Positions 4,401 to 58,269 of a DNA stretch of 64,000 bases are shown here, in pieces; the first letter of the stretch is position 1, and every line of letters begins with the position of its first letter. The notes below the pieces were generated by a model. It was given only the letters and a program-made list of their open reading frames with translations. It was not told the DNA's origin and did not search any database. The stretch lies in the IMG/VR virus record IMGVR_UViG_2671181027_000003; one strand, given 5' to 3'. The DNA comes from a virus. Its lineage: Duplodnaviria > Heunggongvirae > Uroviricota > Caudoviricetes. Made by a program: the position numbers and the translations under genes.

Positions 4401-5453
4401 TTAAGTTGTGGGAGACAGACGGTTCAGGACAAACGCAGCGATATTATTTAGTGCTATATTTAGCAAACTTGCATCGTATGTTTGGTCGTTATCCTTAGGT
4501 TTAAAATTGCTGATACTGACTGTCTCACTGTGCTCATTTTCATAGAAACGTTTACTGCTTGAATCTAGGCGTTTGAGGACGTAAATTTGCCCAAATTCAA
4601 TCCACTCACCTTCACCATTGAGTCCGCTCCCTGTCTTGACTGAGATGAAGTACTTTGCCAGCTTGGTTGTAATGCAGTCTTCATTTTTTTCTATGCAAAC
4701 CTTAATGCCGGCGGCTTTCAAACTACGATAAATGCTGTTTGGATATGCCCCACTATAGATTTCGCTGCTTTCAATGATAATGACGTCGTATTCTTCCTTT
4801 GGCTCAATAGATAAAGCTTCAGGCTCCAAATCATCCTTGTGAAAAATAAATCCTAAAAGACGCTCAAGTTCATCTGTTAATTTGAACATGGGGTTCGCTT
4901 GGATCTCGCCAGCCCTGTCTTCGTAGACGAGACCCGAGGTTATGAGCTTATTTAGCGATCTCAGAGCCATTCCACTTTTTTGTGATGTGAGACTAACTTG
5001 GGCTAATACAGTTGATTTATAGCCTTTTATTGGCGAGCTTGTTGTGATGTAAAGTTTGCGCGCATATTCAATATCAAAGCAGGTTAACCCACTCAGTATG
5101 TGGATAAAAAATAGTTTTTCATCGTCGTTAAGGCTGCTGCGGGCTAGGCTTACCGTCAAGCGAATGTAGTATTCTGTTTTCTTGTCTTCATCATCAAGCA
5201 CGAGCTTTTTGACTAACGCCGAAAAGTGTTCTCTTGAGATATCGACCTCATCGTCGCAAATTTCACCAATGCCCATAATGTAACGGTTGAATCGATCACG
5301 ACAAGTCGTCGCATTTATCTCTGAGAACAACGTGAACATTTTTTCCGCTGCCTCAATATGAGGTCCAACAAGCGGTATAGATTTGGCAAACGCCAAACCA
5401 GTTTCTTTCAATACCTTCCTGTGTTGCATCACGTTTTTGGACAACGTTGTCAT
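4401..5453 (-). CDS. hypothetical protein, AT-rich opposite-strand insertion
   Basis: 350-aa ORF on the minus strand, wedged between + strand core genes. It is AT-rich with no recognisable motif. Confidence 0.5.
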   Translation of the reverse strand: MTTLSKNVMQHRKVLKETGLAFAKSIPLVGPHIEAAEKMFTLFSEINATTCRDRFNRYIMGIGEICDDEVDISREHFSALVKKLVLDDEDKKTEYYIRLTVSLARSSLNDDEKLFFIHILSGLTCFDIEYARKLYITTSSPIKGYKSTVLAQVSLTSQKSGMALRSLNKLITSGLVYEDRAGEIQANPMFKLTDELERLLGFIFHKDDLEPEALSIEPKEEYDVIIIESSEIYSGAYPNSIYRSLKAAGIKVCIEKNEDCITTKLAKYFISVKTGSGLNGEGEWIEFGQIYVLKRLDSSSKRFYENEHSETVSISNFKPKDNDQTYDASLLNIALNNIAAFVLNRLSPTT

Positions 5454-14711: not shown

Positions 14712-14935
14712 TGAGCGGGGATGTGCGCTTTACGCAACCGCGCTTTCAGCGTAGATGAGCGATTAACTTTCAGGCTTTCACCTACATATCTGCCGTTAAT
14801 CAGTTTGATCTCTCCTGATTCCAGCTTGTTCTTTAAATCCTTACCAGCAGCTTTCTGTAGTCTTTCGCCCATTTCAAGGCTCAGACGTTCGGCAGAGGTA
14901 GAATAATAATTAATAACTTTCAGTCGTGACGACAT
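14708..14935 (-). CDS. small basic protein
   Basis: 75 aa starting MSSRL, preceded by a perfect AGGAGG RBS. Lys/Arg-rich C-terminus. Confidence 0.4.
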   Translation of the reverse strand: MSSRLKVINYYSTSAERLSLEMGERLQKAAGKDLKNKLESGEIKLINGRYVGESLKVNRSSTLKARLRKAHIPAQ

Positions 14936-15446
14936 AACCTCTTCCTCCTGTTGGTACATCACAATATGCTTCCCATCCAGGAAAACCTTTGTCGAACAAC
15001 CGACTTTTACGTTCTCCATTTAGGCCGAGTAGCTTGCAGTAAATGTCTGCCAAGTCGGTTCTACGCAAATGCTGATGGTCGTCTGCGGCCGAGAAGACAT
15101 AAGCACCTGCGTTACAAACAGTATAATGGTCAAGAATTATACTTGCAACGTTCATGAGCACTTGCCCACCGGCTAGTCCTTGATGTTGAATATGCTGAAA
15201 TCCTTTGAAATCCATCAGTATTGGGTCAATTTCGTCGAAAATCACGCCCCATACACCGTTCTGTGGAAACCGGAATGCTGGATGCACATTCAGGATATCT
15301 ACCCCCTTACGGGTGAAATCATCCATCGTCAATATTTGTTCAAACCCAACGGCATAAAGCGTGCTTCCCACTGCAAATTGTCTGTATACCATCCCATTGC
15401 CGAATTCTTCTGAGAATGGGTCGTCCCAATGAATTAGATTGTTCAC
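14910..15446 (-). CDS. hypothetical protein
   Basis: 178-aa minus-strand ORF upstream of the small basic ORF. It lies between the glutaredoxin and the recombinase. Confidence 0.45.
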   Translation of the reverse strand: MNNLIHWDDPFSEEFGNGMVYRQFAVGSTLYAVGFEQILTMDDFTRKGVDILNVHPAFRFPQNGVWGVIFDEIDPILMDFKGFQHIQHQGLAGGQVLMNVASIILDHYTVCNAGAYVFSAADDHQHLRRTDLADIYCKLLGLNGERKSRLFDKGFPGWEAYCDVPTGGRGYVVTTESY

Positions 15447-26530: not shown

Positions 26531-27205
26531 TTATTGAAAAAACTGTTCAAGGTCATTTTCTGGTTTTTTCGCTTTTAACGCCCCAGCCTGAACGAAAGTT
26601 TTGCATAACTTGGTCGGAATAATATAACCACCATCAGTTGCGCCGTTGTTTATTGCCAAACCAGCATTAACATAACCTACCAAGAGTGGGTCATCATTAG
26701 ATCTAGAGCTAAACCCTCCTCTTAGGCAAAATTCAGCCAATTGTTCAATATCGAAGGCAGGTACTCTTTCAAGAGCATAAAGCAAGCGTCTCAAAGTATT
26801 GAAATCAATATCTTCCCTGGCAAAAGCCTTGAGGAAAGATGCCACCAACTCTGGTTTTTTCTCACTTTCCATACGGTCAATTATTTCGATCAGACTGGCA
26901 CCTGCTTTACCGGCGAACTTGTCGTCATCATTCAGACGGTCAGTCATTTCAATACGCTCAGATTCAGTCATCTCCGACAAAGGGTTCAGAAAGTGAACTA
27001 ATTTATCCGTGAAGATTTGGTCGCGGATATGGCCTGCCGTTTTATATACACCGACCAGCGTATTCACGAAGGGGATGGATTCAAGAGCCTTAGATTCAAG
27101 CAAGGCATCAAGACCTAGTTCGACATATTCTTTTCCAAGTTCGACTACAGATTCGGATTTTATGGCGCTGATTAATGCGCGGCCGGGTTTCGTGTCCTTT
27201 GCCAT
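26531..27205 (-). CDS. hypothetical protein (convergent with the lipoprotein pair)
   Basis: 224-aa minus-strand ORF. A terminator hairpin at 26506-26530 separates it from the lipoprotein genes. Confidence 0.5.
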   Translation of the reverse strand: MAKDTKPGRALISAIKSESVVELGKEYVELGLDALLESKALESIPFVNTLVGVYKTAGHIRDQIFTDKLVHFLNPLSEMTESERIEMTDRLNDDDKFAGKAGASLIEIIDRMESEKKPELVASFLKAFAREDIDFNTLRRLLYALERVPAFDIEQLAEFCLRGGFSSRSNDDPLLVGYVNAGLAINNGATDGGYIIPTKLCKTFVQAGALKAKKPENDLEQFFQ

Positions 27206-35023: not shown

Positions 35024-36088
35024 CTATTTGCGAGCTTTTGCCTTGCGTAGCTCTTCGAGAATCGCCAGTTCTTCCTTGCTCAACATGACCATCTCACCGT
35101 CTTTTTCTTCAGGAACAACATCGATGATGTCCTCCTGATCATCACCAAGCAAGCTATCTTCCTGCTCTTCTGGTTCTTCCGGCGCAGCTTTAGCTGGTGG
35201 CAATGCCGGGCGTAACTTCGGCCGCCTATAGTGGATGATGAAGTAGACCGAGCTGCCGCGCTTCACTTCGGTGTAATCGAGATAGCCGATCTCCCGAAGT
35301 TGCTCCATCGCCTTCCTGACTGTCGCGTTCTGGGTAATGGTGCGGCTGGTTAAGTTAAGTCTGGCGCGTAAGCGAGCCAACGAGATTGGTGCCGGGTCAG
35401 GTGGCAAACTTTCGATGAAGGTGTAGAGCGCCTGCGCGGATTCTTTTCTGGAGAGTTCGTTAATTGCCCGGAGTTGCAGAAGAACCTTTTTGTCGAACTG
35501 GTAGAGTTCGAAAATCTTAGGATCAGCCTGCAGCGAGACCGTGTCGTTCTTTGTGCTGTACTTTGCTGTCTGCACAAGGTGCGTCACGTAATACTCATCA
35601 GAGCCTTTACTGCGGAATGAGATAGTGTTTGTGGCAATACGAGTTAGAGAACTGTCCAGGCGCTTGCGTAACTTCGCGGACGATCTGGCCGTTGGTATGC
35701 CACAGAGCCTGACGAACTCGACGAACGGTAACGTGACGGTGTCGCCAACAACCTTGTGCTTGGCGAACGCGTGGATGATGCCTACCCACGTTTTGAAGTC
35801 GTTATCCATATCCAGACGAACGCCGGAGATCCTTATGTCCTCGTACCCTTCGGCTTTGGCCAGAGACAGCTGTTTGAGTTCAGCAGAGGCGTCCATAGAG
35901 ACCATTTGCCCCTTTCTGCCCCTGGCGGTCGATTTCAGCGTCGGAACGAAGAGACCAAGACGCATCAGAGCAACAGGCTGAACTGTGTTGTTGGTGTTAG
36001 GAACTAACGTAACAACTTCACCGGTCTTTTTGTCTGTTTCTGAGAATGCTTCAACGATCGCTATGTTTTTATTGCCGTTTTCACTCAT
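35024..36088 (-). CDS. repA: plasmid replication initiator RepA (iteron-binding, P1/pMT1-type organisation)
   Basis: 354-aa ORF flanked by iteron arrays on both sides and by a GATC-rich origin-like segment upstream. This matches the P1 oriR-repA-incA layout. Charged C-terminal tail. Confidence 0.7.
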
Positions 36089-50256: not shown

Positions 50257-50676
50257 ATGATAGACGAACTTCCCCTCTCGGATGAATTAGATCGTAAAGC
50301 GATTGAAGCACTGATCCGCATTGCTGACGAACAATCCCGCTCTTTGATGAGTGAACGTGAAGCACGTCTGGCTATCCGCGCAGTGTTTGAGTCCGTTCAA
50401 GGGCTTGTTGGGGAAGAGGTTGGCGAAGCCATCAATGTGGCGATGTCGCAGTTCAATGGCGGCACCAAGCGCCCTCTGTTTCCTATGCACCTCAAACTCT
50501 CAGGCGGTACGGTTCTGTTCGTATCCGTTTGCCTGGAGACCAATCAAATCCAGATCCTCAACACATCAACGGGCGAATGGCACGAGCCGGTCGTCTGCGA
50601 AAGTGGCGAGGACGCACTGAAAAAGGCTGCTCAGTTTGTGCGTGGCGCACTGCTGAAAGGCGCGAAGAAGCTGTAA
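50257..50676 (+). CDS. hypothetical protein
   Basis: 139-aa ORF. Confidence 0.45.
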   Translation: MIDELPLSDELDRKAIEALIRIADEQSRSLMSEREARLAIRAVFESVQGLVGEEVGEAINVAMSQFNGGTKRPLFPMHLKLSGGTVLFVSVCLETNQIQILNTSTGEWHEPVVCESGEDALKKAAQFVRGALLKGAKKL

Positions 50677-50685
50677 GGAGTACCA

Positions 50686-51228
50686 ATGACCACGATTGTC
50701 GGTGGCGTCGATATTGAGTCCACAGGGCTGGACTTCACATCCGGCCACAAAATTATCGAAATCGCGATAACCCGTTATGAACTGGAAACCCAGAAGCACA
50801 TCGACAGCCTTGAGATGCGCTTCAACCCGCGTCGCAGTATCGATCCGAAGGCGCAGGCGGTGCATGGCATTTCACTGGAAGATCTGGCGACGGAACCGCT
50901 ACTGGCTGACCACGCAGGCAAGATTGCTGCGTACATGGGCGCATGTAGCGCGTTAGTCGCCCATAACGGAGAGGCTTTTGACCTTCCGTTCATTCGCCAC
51001 GAGTTCGGCAGTTATGGGGTGAAATTGCCAGATATCCCCCTCGTAGACACTATGTTAGATGGGTTGTGGGCTACCGAAGATGGGAAGCGTCCACGCCTAG
51101 AAGAACTGGCGTTCTCATTAGGGTTCACATACGACTTGGAGAAAGCCCACAGTGCTCTCTACGATACTGAGCTGATGATGCAATGTTTTTTCAAAGCTCG
51201 GGAAAAATATGGTTTTTTCGATTTTTAA
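50686..51228 (+). CDS. DnaQ-like 3'-5' proofreading exonuclease (DEDDh)
   Basis: Exo I GGVDIESTGLD, Exo II HNGEAFDLPF, Exo III HSALYDTEL. Confidence 0.75.
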   Translation: MTTIVGGVDIESTGLDFTSGHKIIEIAITRYELETQKHIDSLEMRFNPRRSIDPKAQAVHGISLEDLATEPLLADHAGKIAAYMGACSALVAHNGEAFDLPFIRHEFGSYGVKLPDIPLVDTMLDGLWATEDGKRPRLEELAFSLGFTYDLEKAHSALYDTELMMQCFFKAREKYGFFDF

Positions 51229-51229
51229 T

Positions 51230-51265
51230 TTAATGAACGGTGCAATAAATTGCACCGTTTAACTT
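51230..51265. terminator. bidirectional terminator hairpin between convergent genes
   Basis: aacggtgcaataaattgcaccgtt flanked by T- and A-runs. Confidence 0.6.
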
Positions 51266-51266
51266 T

Positions 51267-52382
51267 TTAGAATGAAACTTTTGCCTTCAGTAACTTGGCT
51301 GCCATTTCAAAATCAATTTCTCCGGTTTTAGACTCTGTTGCGAGCTTGTACAGAACCAGAACGTATGTATCGCCTAGAACTTTTGTGATTGCACTTGCCG
51401 TTGTTGCAGATATTGCCCCTCCAACGAGGCTTCCTACACCAGGTATCATCTTTAATAGCCCTGTGACAATTGTTCGTCCTACAAAAACTGCACCACCAGC
51501 ACCTATTAAAGACGTTACCATTGTTGTTAATGCCGCTTTAGATACATCCATTCCAAAGGTGTAACTGATTTTTGCAATCATTGCGACTTGAATTGGCACT
51601 AAGGTAAATGCATCTGAAAATGGGACTGGGGTTGCTGCGGCCGCAGCTGCGAGGGCTGTTGCGGCAATAACTTCTTTACTGGCTTGTTCTTTTTTTATAT
51701 CCAATGCTTTCTTATTTTTAATTGAAAGAGCATTGGAAAATGCCTTTTTTTGTGCTTCTGGAATAACCTCATACGATGTTTGGATTAAATCATCTATGCC
51801 TCTAACCTTTCTTTTCCCTATGATCTCATCTGGTTCATCTTCATCATAAATCGTTTCTTCAATCGCACGAGTCAGACATACGGAATGGCTATAGTTTTTA
51901 AATGCACCCTCAACCTCTTTCGCAAATTCATTATTTGTGAAATTGTTTGTTTTTGTTAGTACTACTATGACTGGTATTCCTTTATTTATCAGGAACTTAG
52001 CAATATCTAATTCAGCGTTTTCATAACGTTGACCAGTGTCATTAATACATAGCCAAGCGAGATGGACATAATTCTCTGATTTTTCACTATTGTTATTTTC
52101 ATTTATATAGTTTTCAATTTTTAATCTTGTTTTATCATAATCAGCAACTTCAAGTCCCTGAGTATCAATGATTTGTAATGGGACGCCTTCTTTCTTAATT
52201 ACTTTTATATTTTCTGTTACAGGGCGCCCTACTCCAGTTCTCGCAAAGTCTCCACGAAATACACTATTAATGAGAGAACTTTTCCCTACACCAGTCTTTC
52301 CTATCACGATGATGTTAGCAACGGGCATATCTTTGACTGCATCGTTCAAAATGGCATTTACATCAATGTTCACATTAATCAC
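51267..52382 (-). CDS. membrane-associated small GTPase (G-domain plus C-terminal Gly/Ala-rich hydrophobic region)
   Basis: G1 GKTGVGKSS, G3 DTQG, G4-like LTKTN. The C-terminal roughly 120 aa are Ala/Gly-rich amphipathic or TM segments. AT-rich and on the minus strand. Confidence 0.6.
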   Translation of the reverse strand: MINVNIDVNAILNDAVKDMPVANIIVIGKTGVGKSSLINSVFRGDFARTGVGRPVTENIKVIKKEGVPLQIIDTQGLEVADYDKTRLKIENYINENNNSEKSENYVHLAWLCINDTGQRYENAELDIAKFLINKGIPVIVVLTKTNNFTNNEFAKEVEGAFKNYSHSVCLTRAIEETIYDEDEPDEIIGKRKVRGIDDLIQTSYEVIPEAQKKAFSNALSIKNKKALDIKKEQASKEVIAATALAAAAAATPVPFSDAFTLVPIQVAMIAKISYTFGMDVSKAALTTMVTSLIGAGGAVFVGRTIVTGLLKMIPGVGSLVGGAISATTASAITKVLGDTYVLVLYKLATESKTGEIDFEMAAKLLKAKVSF

Positions 52383-52584
52383 TCCTTTAGCAGAAGCCTC
52401 TTATCATAGCTGCTGCTTTTACATTTGGAAAAACATATGAGATTTGTATGAAAAAAATCTTCAAAAGCGTGAGCTAAATCTCCTGTAATGACCTGAATTT
52501 ATTTGTTTTTTGCCTGATAGGTTTTGCCAGAATACGCTCAACCAAAACGCGGAAACGCACCAACGAAAACATAAGGAGTTAAAA

Positions 52585-53427
52585 ATGAGTGCAGTTACCA
52601 ACACTGTTAAAAACGATGACCTGGATGAACTGACTGCAATGCTGCAATCTCTCGACGAACCAGTTCAGAAAGCTGCGAAAATGAGCGGTGTCGACGAGAT
52701 CGACGATCTTCTCTCTGGTCTGGATGATGCAATCTCAAAACCAGTCGAGGCGGTGGCGGATGAAGTCATGAATGCCAGCTCTACCGGAGATCTGAGTAGC
52801 GTTCTGGAAGCGCTTGAGATTGAGCACGAATCAGTGAAGATTGAGGAACCAGAGCGTGATCTTATTGCGGAGATAGTGAACGAGCCAACGCCTGAACTTG
52901 ACGCTCAAAGTACTGAGACTACCGATACAGATCCAACTCCTTTACCTTCAGTGGCGTCAGAGACTAAACCTGAAGAAGAGCAGCCAAAACGCCAGAAGGC
53001 AAAATCAGAGCGTGCTCCGGCCAAACCTCGCTTCACGCTGGAAGGTAAGGACGAATCGTTCTATGCGACAGCCGGTCTGGAAAGTGAGAGCTTTACTGCC
53101 GCATTTGAAGGGGCGCCAGTCAAAGCGAAAGACAAGATCTTAAACCTGCTGAACTGGTTTAGTGGTGGCCCTGAAATCAGCGTCTACACGGTAATCGCAA
53201 TGCGCCATATCCTTGACGCGAACACGGCGACCAGCAATAGCATTAAACTGGCGCTAATGAGCAACCCGGAGAAACCATACCCACTCAACACGGCTTCGAC
53301 TCAGGCTGGCCAGATGATGGCTGTGTTTCCGGCCACTGGCATTGCCACCAGGGAAGGTGGAAATCTAACCCTTAATAAAGAGTCGCCGATCGTCAAAAAA
53401 TTCATAGCGGAGTATTCCATTGGATGA
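52585..53427 (+). CDS. acidic hypothetical protein
   Basis: Starts at internal Met MSAVTNTV with RBS ataaggag. The N-terminal half is very acidic. Confidence 0.45.
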   Translation: MSAVTNTVKNDDLDELTAMLQSLDEPVQKAAKMSGVDEIDDLLSGLDDAISKPVEAVADEVMNASSTGDLSSVLEALEIEHESVKIEEPERDLIAEIVNEPTPELDAQSTETTDTDPTPLPSVASETKPEEEQPKRQKAKSERAPAKPRFTLEGKDESFYATAGLESESFTAAFEGAPVKAKDKILNLLNWFSGGPEISVYTVIAMRHILDANTATSNSIKLALMSNPEKPYPLNTASTQAGQMMAVFPATGIATREGGNLTLNKESPIVKKFIAEYSIG

Positions 53428-53612
53428 TGTTCCCCAACCCGATCTAAAGCCCCCTGAGAGATTTAGGATGCTGGGTAAGCTAATTGCATACCCAGCATCG
53501 ATAAAACGCGCCAGAGAGCTTCCCGTTTGCGAATCTGGCGCGTTCTTCTTTGTTTGCTATCCGTTGGATTAAATGAAAAAATAGGTAAGTATTTACCTAT
53601 CAGGGCAGAGTA

Positions 53613-54640: not shown

Positions 54641-55304
54641 TAGGTAAGTACTTACCATTTAAAACGCAGATCGCCAGTGATAAAATCTACCCGCTTTCCG
54701 GATTGGTTCCGGCAGCTCGACCTGATGGGTGGGGGATAGCGTCACTGGCGTCAGGTTTAAAAAAGCTTACTACCAGCGTAGAACCGGCACCGTTTAGGGG
54801 TTGGGGAAGGGGGAACCAAAGTGGGCAGAGAGAAGGGTCACTTTATGATTGTCGAGTCTGGAGTGTTTCGAGAGGTTGAATCCAGAACTCCCCTTCATAA
54901 AGTGTGGGAAGATCTCGGTTCTGGGGTGCTGTCATCCATAACTTCCCAAGCCTAAGCTGGCAGTAGACTTAGGTCATAACTTTTCAGGTTATGTAACGAC
55001 CAGGTTGGTGAGGAAATTTTGTACTCACCTCCCTGGGAGAGTATTACCTGAAAAGACAACCTCTCACTTCGTTCGAGGTGAACTTCACTCACTTCGTTCG
55101 TTCAGTTCAGGTTTTATTAAACCTGTTCTGGGAAGTAAGTTTCTCTTTTCTAAAAAAATTTTAATATTTACACGCACGCGTGCGCACACGCGCGAGGGGA
55201 AAAATCGCCCATCGTAATGTCTTCAATGTGCCAGGAGCGGACGTTTAATAATTATGCAAGGATATGCTAAAAACAGGCTGTCACAGTTAAACTAACCAAT
55301 AAAT

Positions 55305-55340
55305 GATTTGTATCATCGTTGAGTAACGATGATACAAATC
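55305..55340 (-). terminator. likely terminator of the minus-strand operon
   Basis: 14-bp perfect stem gatttgtatcatcg / cgatgatacaaatc with loop ttgagtaa, about 90 nt downstream of the 55431 stop. A U-rich tract follows on the minus strand. Confidence 0.45.
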
Positions 55341-55430
55341 ACGAAGGGTATTGATATTCCGTATATTCAGGGGTGGAAAACCTGATGTTTTTTCGTTTCC
55401 TGCAGTTTCTATATATGGATTTGACATTAT

Positions 55431-56261
55431 TTAAATGGGTTGAACAGAATTAGCAAGACGCTTTTCTTGTCCAAATGGTGTTGTATAAAAACGTTGTTCA
55501 ATACCGTAAAGAAGCAACTTCAATTCATCATCACTATTTATAGAAAAAGTTCCAGATAGTGGATTAAAAATCACATTCGCCTGACAGTAATTATTAATAT
55601 ATAGAAGCATTCCGGCCTTATCTGCAGGAGTCAATGTCGCTAGCGTATCCATTGCAAGAGCAACTCGCTTCCTATTTGGCTTGGATACTTTGTTTACGTT
55701 ATACTCTTCGGAAAGATTGATGAAGGATTCGGAAAGGAATTGAGTTACCTCTTCTTCCGTAGCCTCTTTAAATAGTATATCAATCCCTTTGAATATACTG
55801 CTTATTGTGGCTAAGTCTTTGAAAATCAACCTATTAGTTTCTTTAAAGAACACTGCGTCAGGAAATTCATTAATTACAAGGCGATTTTCATCATTTTCAA
55901 CAACTGCTGCATCACCAAATGAAATGGTTTTTTTTCTTATCATTTGCGAAGGGGTAACCTTTTGAAAATAAAAATCACCATCCTGTTCAGCCATGATGTA
56001 AGAAATATTGGAGAACTGAGATTTTGTCAAACTCAGAAACTCCTTAGAGTCAAAGTCAATTTTCAGTATCGGCAAACAATAGTCTTGCTCGCTAAAACTG
56101 TCAATCTTGAACCATACCTCTTCATCCAAATTATGGTCAGGATTATAAACTACACAATTTCCATTAGTAACAACGACTGGTGAATAAAGAGTACAATCTG
56201 ATAGTAATTTGAAATAAGGGTTTTTTCGTAATCTTTTTATTTTCGCAAACACATTGTTCAT
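55431..56261 (-). CDS. hypothetical cytoplasmic protein, second gene of an AT-rich two-gene cassette
   Basis: 276-aa ORF, AT-rich. Its start is 3 bp from the stop of the upstream membrane-protein gene. Confidence 0.55.
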   Translation of the reverse strand: MNNVFAKIKRLRKNPYFKLLSDCTLYSPVVVTNGNCVVYNPDHNLDEEVWFKIDSFSEQDYCLPILKIDFDSKEFLSLTKSQFSNISYIMAEQDGDFYFQKVTPSQMIRKKTISFGDAAVVENDENRLVINEFPDAVFFKETNRLIFKDLATISSIFKGIDILFKEATEEEVTQFLSESFINLSEEYNVNKVSKPNRKRVALAMDTLATLTPADKAGMLLYINNYCQANVIFNPLSGTFSINSDDELKLLLYGIEQRFYTTPFGQEKRLANSVQPI

Positions 56262-56263
56262 TA

Positions 56264-56854
56264 CTATTTCCTTTCGATAAATGTGTAGTCATTGATTCTG
56301 AATGCCTTGGAGATGACAATCTCTTTAGGTGTTTTATATTTGCATTTGCTTATAAGAAAGATAGAGGCGCCACCTTTAGTTTGTATACTATAAAACTCGT
56401 AACGGAAGACTAGAAACAATGGGTTGAAGTATAGAGCTTGTGACAAAAAGGTAAAAATAAACAAAACGCCATAAACAAAAAACAAAGCACTCCAACTTGA
56501 AATGCTTAGTGCTACAAAAAAATACCCCAAATAACTGGGTAAGAAACTATTATTTGCATGTTCAATGTTTACTGCGTCGCCTTCTTTAAAATCATCCGCG
56601 CTTAGACCACGACTGAGTAAGATACTTAAACCGGTGAGCAGTACAGGAATCAGCAGATACAGGAAATATGAATTGAATGGATGCCAATCACTTAAAAAGC
56701 TAAACTGTGGGTAGAATTGCAGGAAATATCCCAGAGTGTACTTTTTCTGAACGAGAAAAACTATAACTAACAAAGATGTAGCATTGAATGTTAGCAGCAG
56801 TCTGAAGAGTATGTTAATTATGGCGCACCCCCTGTGAGTGAGAACAAGGTACAT
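56264..56854 (-). CDS. integral membrane protein (about 4 TM), first gene of the cassette
   Basis: 196 aa with four long hydrophobic segments. AT-rich. Confidence 0.55.
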   Translation of the reverse strand: MYLVLTHRGCAIINILFRLLLTFNATSLLVIVFLVQKKYTLGYFLQFYPQFSFLSDWHPFNSYFLYLLIPVLLTGLSILLSRGLSADDFKEGDAVNIEHANNSFLPSYLGYFFVALSISSWSALFFVYGVLFIFTFLSQALYFNPLFLVFRYEFYSIQTKGGASIFLISKCKYKTPKEIVISKAFRINDYTFIERK

Positions 56855-57272
56855 TAACTACCTTATGTACCGAGCTTCTCATTTTATTTTTGTGAAGTAG
56901 GTACTAACGGCTAAAAAGAGCGAAGTAAAAAGTTACTAGTAGTCAGACCAGCATAATGCAAAAAATCACTGTATATCAATTATTATTTTTCGGATAGATA
57001 AAGCTTATCCAAACTCCAGTAACTCAATGGGTTTAAAATTCTGGTCTATCGGGTAGCCTGAAAGGTAGCCACTTTAGATCATTTTCACGAGTTTTAACGC
57101 ATCTTTCTCAACTCTGAATGGCCGCTTTGAGTGTCTGAGCGTTGATTAACAAAGGTTATGTTAGTAACACATCTGCAGTGATAACAATTACGAACTTCCG
57201 CTTCACGCTCAGAGCGGACCTTCTGCCCAATGAGCTAGTCCGCTACGCGCCATAAGCGGACAGGCTGTAGTA

Positions 57273-57875
57273 CTAACTGCATTGTAGCTGCGAGATTTCA
57301 CCATCGATGGCTTCTATAACCTGTTTATAGCGCAGCATGACCTCTTCATGAATCATCATTAATCCGCGGCCGTACTCTGTGGCTAGGATTGTGTATCTTT
57401 TCAGGTGTGCAAGATGCTCTTTGTTGCCAGTAATGTCACTGGCAACCTGCGTGGAGTCCAGCCTTTCGATAAGGGCATTATTGCCGCGATAGGAATCAAT
57501 TAGGCTTCTTGCGCTTGTATAAAAAGCCACAATTTTTGATAGTGTTTCTCTATGAACTTCAGGTAGAGATGCCGAGTTAGCTTCATAGAAAGTGAAGTAG
57601 TTTTGAGTAATGGGGAAAATGTTATCGAACGGTGAGTTCCGGTCGTATTTTTCGATTTCCTCTTCCATTCTGGCCTTATACAACTTAATCAGTGAGTCTA
57701 TTTCCTCTCTGACACCCAAGAGCGTTGTTATACGCTTCTCTCTGGCCGCTGTTGCCTGCTGTTTTGCCTGCTGTTTCACCTGAGCTGTCACTCCTTTCAT
57801 CGTGAAACAGCCACCTAAAAGAGCCGCTAAAAATGCGGAGATGAGATCTGAATATTCGTGCCAGAAGGTTAGCAT
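57273..57875 (-). CDS. hypothetical N-terminally anchored coiled-coil protein
   Basis: 200 aa with an N-terminal hydrophobic helix LISAFLAALLGGCF. Confidence 0.45.
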   Translation of the reverse strand: MLTFWHEYSDLISAFLAALLGGCFTMKGVTAQVKQQAKQQATAAREKRITTLLGVREEIDSLIKLYKARMEEEIEKYDRNSPFDNIFPITQNYFTFYEANSASLPEVHRETLSKIVAFYTSARSLIDSYRGNNALIERLDSTQVASDITGNKEHLAHLKRYTILATEYGRGLMMIHEEVMLRYKQVIEAIDGEISQLQCS

Positions 57876-58269
57876 GGCTAAAATTCCATTGGGTTAAATT
57901 GTGTCTATTTAACCACATCATGATACGAAGATACCTTCCAAAATGTTGCCATGAACTCGTCTGTTGTCGTCTTGGGTATTAGCACCGTGCTCTCTCGTTA
58001 TCTAGGGCTTGGTCCAATCCTCTCTCAAAGCAGATCTATTAAACGGCCTGCTCTGATCGCCGCCTACTCCGCAGCCGATATGCCTCACAAGCGTGACATT
58101 GGATTTTTGTCACAAAATGATAGGTAAGTATTTACCTATCATTTTAAATCAGGTATCTTACCGTTCGTCAGGATGACGAAGTACCGGTTAGGTACTGTTC
58201 CAGGATGGAACGCCAAAAGGCGGCTGGCTTGGCCAGCCGCAACTCTTTCTGACACTGAATGGAATCCAA

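Follow-up and report, generated by a model that had tools for sequence, protein, structure and literature searches.

We report here that a GTPase gene found in a viral DNA record is a portable single-gene module common to several classes of mobile element. The record, IMG/VR virus record IMGVR_UViG_2671181027_000003 (Caudoviricetes), provided a stretch of 64,000 nucleotides, referred to below as the window, which is an SSU5-like phage-plasmid. On the minus strand, at 51267-52373, lies a coding sequence (CDS) whose product, judged by its sequence matches, is a P-loop GTPase of the septin/AIG1/Toc/IRG class fused to a DUF697 domain. The gene forms a self-contained accessory cassette, a 'moron', of this temperate phage-plasmid, and it recurs, under purifying selection, on unrelated prophages and small plasmids. 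The sequence family is already catalogued, under RefSeq labels such as 'GTPase', 'YcjF family protein' and 'GTP-binding DUF697 domain-containing protein'; its portability is what is new here. What might such a gene do for the elements that carry it? The reading we favour, with a probability of roughly 0.4, is that the product acts at the membrane as a stand-alone switch GTPase, which would serve the element in exclusion or abortive infection.

A self-contained cassette in an SSU5-like phage-plasmid

The first-pass annotation, made from the DNA letters, had singled out an AT-rich open reading frame (ORF) at 51267-52382 that reads against the genome direction. This ORF is present on the minus strand, as in the ORF list, and its composition is as described: the GC content of the gene is 0.379 (37.9%; GC3 0.276), compared with 0.497 for the window and 0.53 and 0.49 for the two flanks. 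The likely start is the GTG at 52373, giving a protein of 368 amino acids; an in-frame alternative, the GTG at 52382, would give 371. We prefer the former because a Shine-Dalgarno sequence read from the DNA, AAGGAG at 52382-52387 (minus strand), lies eight nucleotides upstream of it and because RefSeq annotates 368 amino acids (WP_047722250.1) in the nearly identical plasmid pCAV1741-110. Residue numbers throughout are those of the 368-residue form.

The limits of the cassette are set by comparison with relatives. Among plasmids, Citrobacter freundii pCAV1741-110 matches positions 50600-53500 best, with 99.9% identity. Salmonella phage SSU5 is 97% identical on either side of the gene, and the gene itself is missing there (BLASTN). 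In boundary alignments, homology with SSU5 and with the empty-site plasmid C. freundii pCF5125-1 stops at 51219/51220 and restarts at 52492. The unit is therefore a cassette of 1272 bp and 37% GC (51220-52491). It takes the place of about 60 bp in 'empty' relatives and of an unrelated 352 bp in SSU5, so that the site has three alleles: empty (about 60 bp with a hairpin of its own), the SSU5 sequence and the GTPase gene. Insertion of the cassette replaced the terminal codons (51205-51228) of the neighbouring DnaQ-like 3'-5' exonuclease gene (50686-51228), whose product here has 180 residues ending in GFFDF; in SSU5 and empty-site plasmids it has 185 and ends in a stretch beginning GFFKLPFE. No transposon hallmarks are visible at the cassette ends in the boundary alignments.

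Within the cassette, an ORF and Rfam scan revealed no second ORF of note, no antitoxin-like partner ORF and no credible small ORF or RNA; a single sub-threshold snoRNA match is noise. A terminator scan placed a terminator-like hairpin with a 12-bp stem (51234-51261) in the interval that separates the exonuclease gene from the GTPase gene, which converge on it; its T-run is on the plus strand. The promoter scan gave a sigma-70-like candidate, TTTCCA-17-TATGAT, at 52403-52431 on the minus strand; six promoter-like sites were found in the region against 4.3 expected, which is not above chance.

Most SSU5-like plasmids lack the cassette. Neither SSU5 nor any of 12 related phage records has the gene, and a protein search of 50,697 phage records returned no full-length GTPase-DUF697 copy. 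A 2.9-kb query that includes the whole cassette is covered to 80% or more by 33 of 530 related plasmids. A separate search at the protein level found 41 plasmids, mostly from Klebsiella, that encode the protein at 95% identity or more. Cronobacter pCsaCS931a has an allele of 86% protein identity in the identical slot, with dS saturated. Complete E. coli genomes have the gene in only 5 of 5426 cases, exclusively on plasmids.

Presence/absence polymorphism, deviant GC (0.37 against about 0.5), expression signals of its own and dispensability, as seen in SSU5, are the features of a moron gene, and the cassette has all of them. Since SSU5 and most relatives do without it, the gene is accessory and not one for replication or morphogenesis. 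The first-pass annotation had likewise held that it was no replication gene, and would have given up its view on finding orthology to a conserved packaging or morphogenesis GTPase; as a core gene, this GTPase has no syntenic conservation. One could still imagine a GTPase with a core phage function in replication, packaging or morphogenesis, given that the gene stands close to nrdAB, thyA, DHFR and the exonuclease, in a block devoted to nucleotide metabolism and replication, and given a weak, non-significant PHROG match to small terminase (E 0.059). This idea is effectively refuted: SSU5, a viable phage, lacks the gene, and so do most relatives; the orientation is opposite and the GC foreign; and in P2-like prophages, lambda-like prophages and ColE1 plasmids the gene is found at places that are not homologous.

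Two further observations concern the cassette in its relatives. In Klebsiella grimontii NZ_CP056704.1 and Raoultella planticola NZ_CP082171.1, ISKpn26 lies within the 2.9-kb region around the gene, and two truncated products are known, one of 247 amino acids comprising the DUF697 part only and one of 225 comprising the G domain only (P0013 and P0014). The insertions and truncations indicate that the gene is being lost or disrupted in some lineages. Separately, the SSU5-like plasmid p2 of K. pneumoniae Kp1604 lowers phage plating (PMC8969562). We rejected this phenotype as an effect of the GTPase because p2 lacks the cassette, with 12% of the region covered.

The same gene on unrelated mobile elements

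Twelve IMG/VR contigs carry alleles at 84-98% protein identity. For seven of the twelve, and for a Raoultella chromosome and a JGI contig, alignment with the window is limited to the gene, where nucleotide identity is about 76%. Two of these gene-only alignments run on through the hairpin, and in P2-like contexts the alignment reaches 51238.

The settings are diverse. In P2-like prophages (L100, L105 and L106; 86-87% protein identity) the gene stands between the tail-completion gene and the baseplate genes V, W and J. On the Raoultella terrigena chromosome (83%) it is part of an island beside fis, near DUF2280, Fic, IS21 and Abi_C genes. A copy with 53% identity lies in the accessory region of a lambda-like prophage, between the terminase GpA and portal genes on one side and a serine recombinase on the other. 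Mobilisable ColE1-type plasmids of about 5 kb from Klebsiella, E. coli, Leclercia and Raoultella encode a homologue (36% over 333 residues, E 5e-63) as their only cargo beside the Rop and Mob genes. More distant copies (about 27-35%) are found on small Acinetobacter plasmids; in the one inspected, pXBB1-4, a second GTPase-domain gene follows the 27.5% copy. The first-pass annotation had expected GTPases of this kind to recur in prophage accessory regions, and the gene does occupy accessory positions in unrelated temperate phages, as well as on small plasmids.

Is the protein kept functional in these settings? For two close pairs dN/dS is 0.10 and 0.08, and for distant pairs, in which synonymous sites are saturated, it is at most 0.06 (overall 0.03-0.10). 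Values of about 0.1 or lower mean that the protein is under purifying selection and is kept functional in each setting. Mobility as a single gene, together with purifying selection, is thus established.

The slots invite comparison with known phage accessory loci. Prophage moron and hotspot genes, such as P2 old and tin and those of the P2/P4 hotspots, are likewise AT-rich inserts between two conserved genes and polymorphic in presence, and anti-phage genes are known to accumulate in prophage slots that conserved genes flank (PMC9122126). The P2 slot described here, between tail completion and baseplate, is not among the hotspots analysed in that study, and the SSU5 slot, with its three states, has low diversity. 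The P2 slot is empty in nearly all of 225 related phage records. In Enterobacter phage ENT4 (PV844615.1, 1280-2344) it holds a lone AT-rich, minus-strand gene for a 354-residue PIN-domain protein. Homologues of this PIN-domain gene are found on conjugative plasmids of Yersinia, E. coli, Salmonella and Proteus.

A gene that is the sole cargo of small multicopy plasmids might serve the element itself, through post-segregational killing or addiction, lysis timing, control of superinfection by its own kin or maintenance of the plasmid state at the membrane. Its persistence in one slot of diverged SSU5-like backbones, as in Cronobacter with its 86% identity and saturated dS, fits such a role, and the truncated or IS-flanked copies are what one would expect of a costly gene. 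Yet the cassette contains neither an ORF nor an RNA resembling an antitoxin partner, the majority of SSU5-like plasmids are stable without the gene, and its place in P2-like phages is with the late genes, at a distance from the modules for replication and immunity. We regard a service of this kind as quite improbable.

A septin-like G domain and a DUF697 tail

The search with hidden Markov models that the first-pass annotation had recommended found all three families it named above their gathering scores: MMR_HSR1 (1.2e-11), AIG1 (2.3e-7) and DUF697 (2.1e-8). The order of the motifs G1 (GxxxxGK[ST]), G2 (Thr) and G3 (DxxG), together with the MMR_HSR1 match, marks a TRAFAC-class P-loop GTPase. 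The G1 motif or P-loop, GKTGVGKS, spans residues 25-32 (52278-52301, minus strand); in an alignment of 44 homologues G25, G28, G30, K31 and S32 are invariant, as is T53 of G2. P-loops of this type occur also in GIMAP and Toc GTPases, and the Asn of potassium-activated GTPases is missing from it. The G3 motif, DTQG, lies at residues 70-73 (52155-52166, minus strand), with D70, G73 and E75 invariant. It is followed by a conserved hydrophobic residue, L74, in place of the catalytic Gln. Elsewhere in the family alignment A106, W107, C109, R116, E118, T140 and R169 are invariant and K141 nearly so; the pair R116-x-E118 falls between G3 and G4.

All the motifs cited by the first-pass annotation (GKTGVGKSS, DTQG and TKTN) are therefore in place, but the last of them is degenerate. 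G4, TKTN at residues 140-143 (51945-51956, minus strand), keeps the T and K, whereas the guanine-specifying Asp of the [NT]KxD pattern is replaced across the family by N, R, A or S. Because this Asp is not conserved, guanine specificity cannot be assumed. The Asn/Glu-rich stretch that had been read as a linker before the tail, NENNNSEKSEN at residues 90-100, turns out to lie within the G domain, between G3 and G4.

To which GTPases is this domain closest? The best sequence and fold matches are to septins, AIG1/GIMAP proteins, Toc34 and immunity-related GTPases (IRGs); EngB too is among the nearest relatives of solved structure. With these it shares the GKTGxGKS P-loop, the hydrophobic residue after the G3 Gly, a conserved G3-G4 block with an invariant Arg, and the joining of a G domain to a helical or hydrophobic element, here a putatively membrane-binding one. 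A profile search of Protein Data Bank (PDB) sequences puts septins at the top (septin-3, 6.7e-12), and a Foldseek search of the PDB puts IRG proteins there (IIGP1, Irgb6, Irgb10 and GM4951; about 390-410 columns), followed by YsxC, septin-2, Toc34 and GIMAP7. The likeness has its limits: the whole-chain TM-score to IRG proteins is about 0.44, the G4 Asp is unconserved here, the relatives lack a DUF697 tail, and the scores cluster around the family thresholds. AIG1, at 30.8 bits against a cut-off of 27, passes; Septin (26.0 against 26.2) falls just short and IIGP (14.3 against 24) well short.

Of the labels proposed at first, septin-, AIG1- and YfjP-like, AIG1 thus stands, septin is borderline and YfjP falls away. 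YfjP, YeeP and YkfA of the E. coli CP4 cryptic prophages are also P-loop GTPases on prophage-derived islands, with the string GKTG(A/V)GKSSL.N, but YfjP has 287 residues and neither DUF697 nor a hydrophobic tail. Kinship with YfjP was rejected, as BLASTP aligns only 20 residues around the P-loop. Der, Era, EngB, HydF and MnmE were likewise set aside, all NCBIfam matches being far below the equivalog cut-offs. Compared with bacterial dynamin-like proteins (LeoA/LeoBC, BDLP, IniA and DynA), our protein is half the size or less and has no dynamin middle/GED architecture. Membership of the Eleos system (LeoA/LeoBC) was also rejected: about 70 of 601 profile positions are matched (LeoBC, E 2.7e-6 at positions 78-148; LeoA, E 0.0033), and a single gene is set against a system of two or three.

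The DUF697 domain (PF05128) is a predicted helical domain covering residues 222-345 or so (51339-51710, minus strand). It scores 34.5 bits against a cut-off of 27.7 (residues 225-348 in the 371-residue numbering), and the homologues match as well; its conserved motif reads P-x-P-F-S-D ... Q..M...I....FG. An AlphaFold2 model (pLDDT 83, pTM 0.83) has a G domain at residues 1-215 and then five helices, with low confidence at 293-308. The DUF697 tail resembles dynamin stalks. In the roughly 105 residues from 236 to 339 only six charges are conserved (D254, K268, D276, R300, K308 and K331), and Kyte-Doolittle hydropathy is 1.0-1.7 throughout, with a peak of 1.71 at residue 289. Inside this tract a Gly/Ala/Ser/Thr-rich hydrophobic segment, residues 280-330 (51384-51536, minus strand), is a candidate membrane-inserting element, and its conserved IPG-x-G turn, flanked by the conserved R300 and K308, suggests a helical hairpin. 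Most likely this hairpin sits in or on the cytoplasmic membrane.

The family extends far beyond enterobacteria. A profile built from the 44 homologues was run against 1.84 billion representatives, clustered at 50% identity; it matches 978 clusters at E ≤ 1e-30 and 4002 at E ≤ 1e-10. Proteins with the GTPase-DUF697 layout are found in Proteobacteria, Cyanobacteria, Firmicutes, Bacteroidota and Chloroflexi. Most have 360-400 residues and the identical two domains. Some are tandem duplications or have a second G domain (P0121 and P0126), and paralogue pairs also occur. The N-terminal extensions of longer homologues contain no Pfam domains besides this second G domain.

A DUF697 domain is also found in YcjF, an inner-membrane protein of E. 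coli, where it covers residues 183-341. The two proteins share PF05128 and a core motif, P-x-(P/A)-x-x-D ... YG. The gene ycjF directly follows the NTPase gene ycjX (DUF463), so that an NTPase is coupled to DUF697 by operon in one case and by fusion in the other. The differences are considerable. The NTPase part here is a septin-like G domain and not DUF463; ycjF is a core chromosomal gene, whereas ours is on mobile elements; and YcjF has an N-terminal hydrophobic pair at about residues 66-117, which we take to be a transmembrane hairpin and which has no counterpart in our protein. Neither the region of the window that was read nor the annotated homologue contexts inspected contain a DUF463 gene, and the psp and tyrR neighbourhood is missing there as well. 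Orthology to YcjF was rejected on the last two points and on the sequence comparisons, BLASTP being non-significant and hhalign giving E 0.068 over 52 columns of the motif region only.

YcjF does bring up the main alternative to the reading we favour: that the GTPase is a membrane-maintenance or stress factor. It would stabilise or repair the cytoplasmic membrane, as bacterial dynamin-like proteins or YcjX with YcjF might, and would make the lysogen fitter, or more tolerant of pore-formers and envelope stress, instead of killing or excluding. The fusion recapitulates the pairing of an NTPase with DUF697. In many species ycjXF is located close to psp operons, and its promoter is of the sigma-32 type (PMC3041696). 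With 978 clusters the family is ancient and broadly distributed, and the chromosomal contexts inspected are mostly non-defence ones; it has some dynamin-like neighbours, and its tail is like a dynamin stalk. On the other hand, the protein is not a YcjF orthologue and has no ycjX beside it. A housekeeping role hardly explains why it should be the sole cargo of 5-kb plasmids and be captured repeatedly by temperate phages, and only 5 of 5426 E. coli genomes have the gene. We consider this explanation a serious contender, though an unlikely one. If it is right, the gene would open a first way into the study of YcjF-type proteins and of how they relate to envelope-stress responses.

A possible role in exclusion or abortive infection

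The first-pass annotation had proposed an abortive-infection or exclusion factor, and exclusion or abortive infection is the role we prefer, at the odds given above. We infer it from several lines of evidence. The gene is the sole cargo of 5-kb plasmids and fills moron-type slots in three unrelated types of temperate phage; a PIN-domain gene is the alternative occupant of the P2 slot; a Pseudomonas homologue has WYL and dynamin neighbours; and prophage slots are rich in anti-phage genes (PMC9122126).

How might such a switch work? Expressed in the lysogen from its own promoter, the protein would be placed in or on the cytoplasmic membrane by its hydrophobic hairpin. Hydrolysis of nucleotide would probably occur only after head-to-head pairing of G domains, as with other GTPases that have a hydrophobic residue after the G3 Gly, and the invariant R116 is a candidate arginine finger. 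Pairing fits the existence of paralogue pairs and tandem fusions in the family. The nucleotide state would govern the arrangement of DUF697 hairpins in the membrane. For a mobile element the pay-off would be exclusion of a superinfecting phage at the membrane, or abortive infection through membrane perturbation.

The Pseudomonas case is the locus of P. plecoglossicida (L007, 6901-17107). There a gene for a WYL-WCX regulator is followed after 48 bp by the GTPase-DUF697 gene, then by one for a 1236-residue patatin-dynamin fusion and two more dynamin-like genes. This locus has the look of a single island, and it might be an extended Eleos-like system. Searches by phmmer with the Pseudomonas dynamins found no further cases of dynamin neighbours. 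In Acinetobacter johnsonii pXBB1-4 (L125, 166-1966) and in a second locus (L071, 4250-6647) the GTPase-DUF697 gene is directly followed by a gene for another GTPase-domain protein, so annotated and no further in pXBB1-4 and lacking a DUF697 match in L071. The arrangement suggests that heterodimeric versions of the system exist.

Several findings weigh against the role we prefer. The first concerns the membrane. The claim that a hydrophobic C-terminus anchors the protein there is made likely by the nearly charge-free tail, but the hydrophobicity is marginal: by a simple scale of translocon free energy, the most favourable 19-mer (residues 280-298) sums to +2.0, and the 99-117 segment of YcjF, similarly, to +2.2. 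The SSU5 slot is not a diverse hotspot, having only the states empty, 352-bp SSU5 filler and GTPase gene. When 147 neighbours of about 40 diverse chromosomal homologues were scanned with Pfam and PADLOC, most were ordinary (EAL/GGDEF proteins, M3 peptidases and transporters), and the defence matches were scattered: LeoA/LeoBC three times, and DolB, PDC-S05, mad3, DrmC, WYL and AriA once each. The Bordetella avium copy is surrounded by metabolic genes. No PADLOC model covers the protein, and for it and its 44 homologues the matches to LeoBC, LeoA and mad8 are confined to the G domain. The model PDC-S29 gives a weak, partial match to the tail only (E 0.0027, positions 142-207 of 220); it matches 17 of the 44 family members, at best with 6.9e-5. 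PHROGs offers two families, both of unknown function (5e-5 and 6e-4). A literature search on DUF697, YcjF/YcjX, PDC-S29, the accessions and GIMAP or paraseptin defence found no functional study.

These neighbourhoods show that the family, taken overall, extends beyond defence islands, since the neighbours are mostly ordinary, the defence matches scattered and the Bordetella copy in a metabolic context; its enterobacterial AT-rich branch is the part found on mobile elements. Such ordinary chromosomal surroundings would suit a membrane-maintenance role just as well. Nor does the family have a universal partner gene: clustering of the four neighbours on either side of some 70 loci gave only lineage-specific synteny, such as cyanobacterial Uma2 and DUF3326.

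A more specific proposal goes beyond the role we prefer. The gene might by itself constitute an immune or exclusion system of mobile elements that has so far gone unrecognised, and whose product, a membrane-inserted, dimerisation-activated GTPase like the septins, IRGs and GIMAPs, would sense infection and gate or disrupt the cytoplasmic membrane. We think it unlikely in this full form. If true, it would be a bacterial, phage-borne counterpart of the GTPases of eukaryotic cell-autonomous immunity, and would provide the first mechanism for the large orphan DUF697 family, YcjF included. DUF697 is widespread, its GTPase-fused form alone accounts for about 1000 clusters at 50% identity, and among the elements that have taken up the enterobacterial branch are phage-plasmids often met in clinical Klebsiella, Enterobacter and Citrobacter. 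Bacterial immunity could thus gain a new class of membrane GTPases, linked to the immune GTPases of the septin, IRG and GIMAP type.

Other low-GC regions of the window deserve mention. A second AT-rich island, 55204-58055 (GC 0.35-0.37), contains minus-strand ORFs at 55431-56261, 56264-56854 and 57273-57875 without Pfam matches. No megablast match (about 85% identity or more) covers the two-gene unit 55431-56854 in 72,556 PLSDB plasmids, pCAV1741-110 among them; the two therefore diverge at another variable slot, where the window holds an unknown two-gene cassette. The GTPase gene had been described as a lone minus-strand gene. Locally this is accurate, as it is the sole real minus-strand gene from about 37 kb to about 55 kb and its annotated neighbours are all in the opposite orientation, but elsewhere the window has other low-GC minus-strand ORFs. 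In this mostly plus-strand genome, those of at least 150 codons at 4401-5453, 14910-15446, 26531-27205 and 35024-36088 coincide with local dips in GC and may be further accessory inserts.

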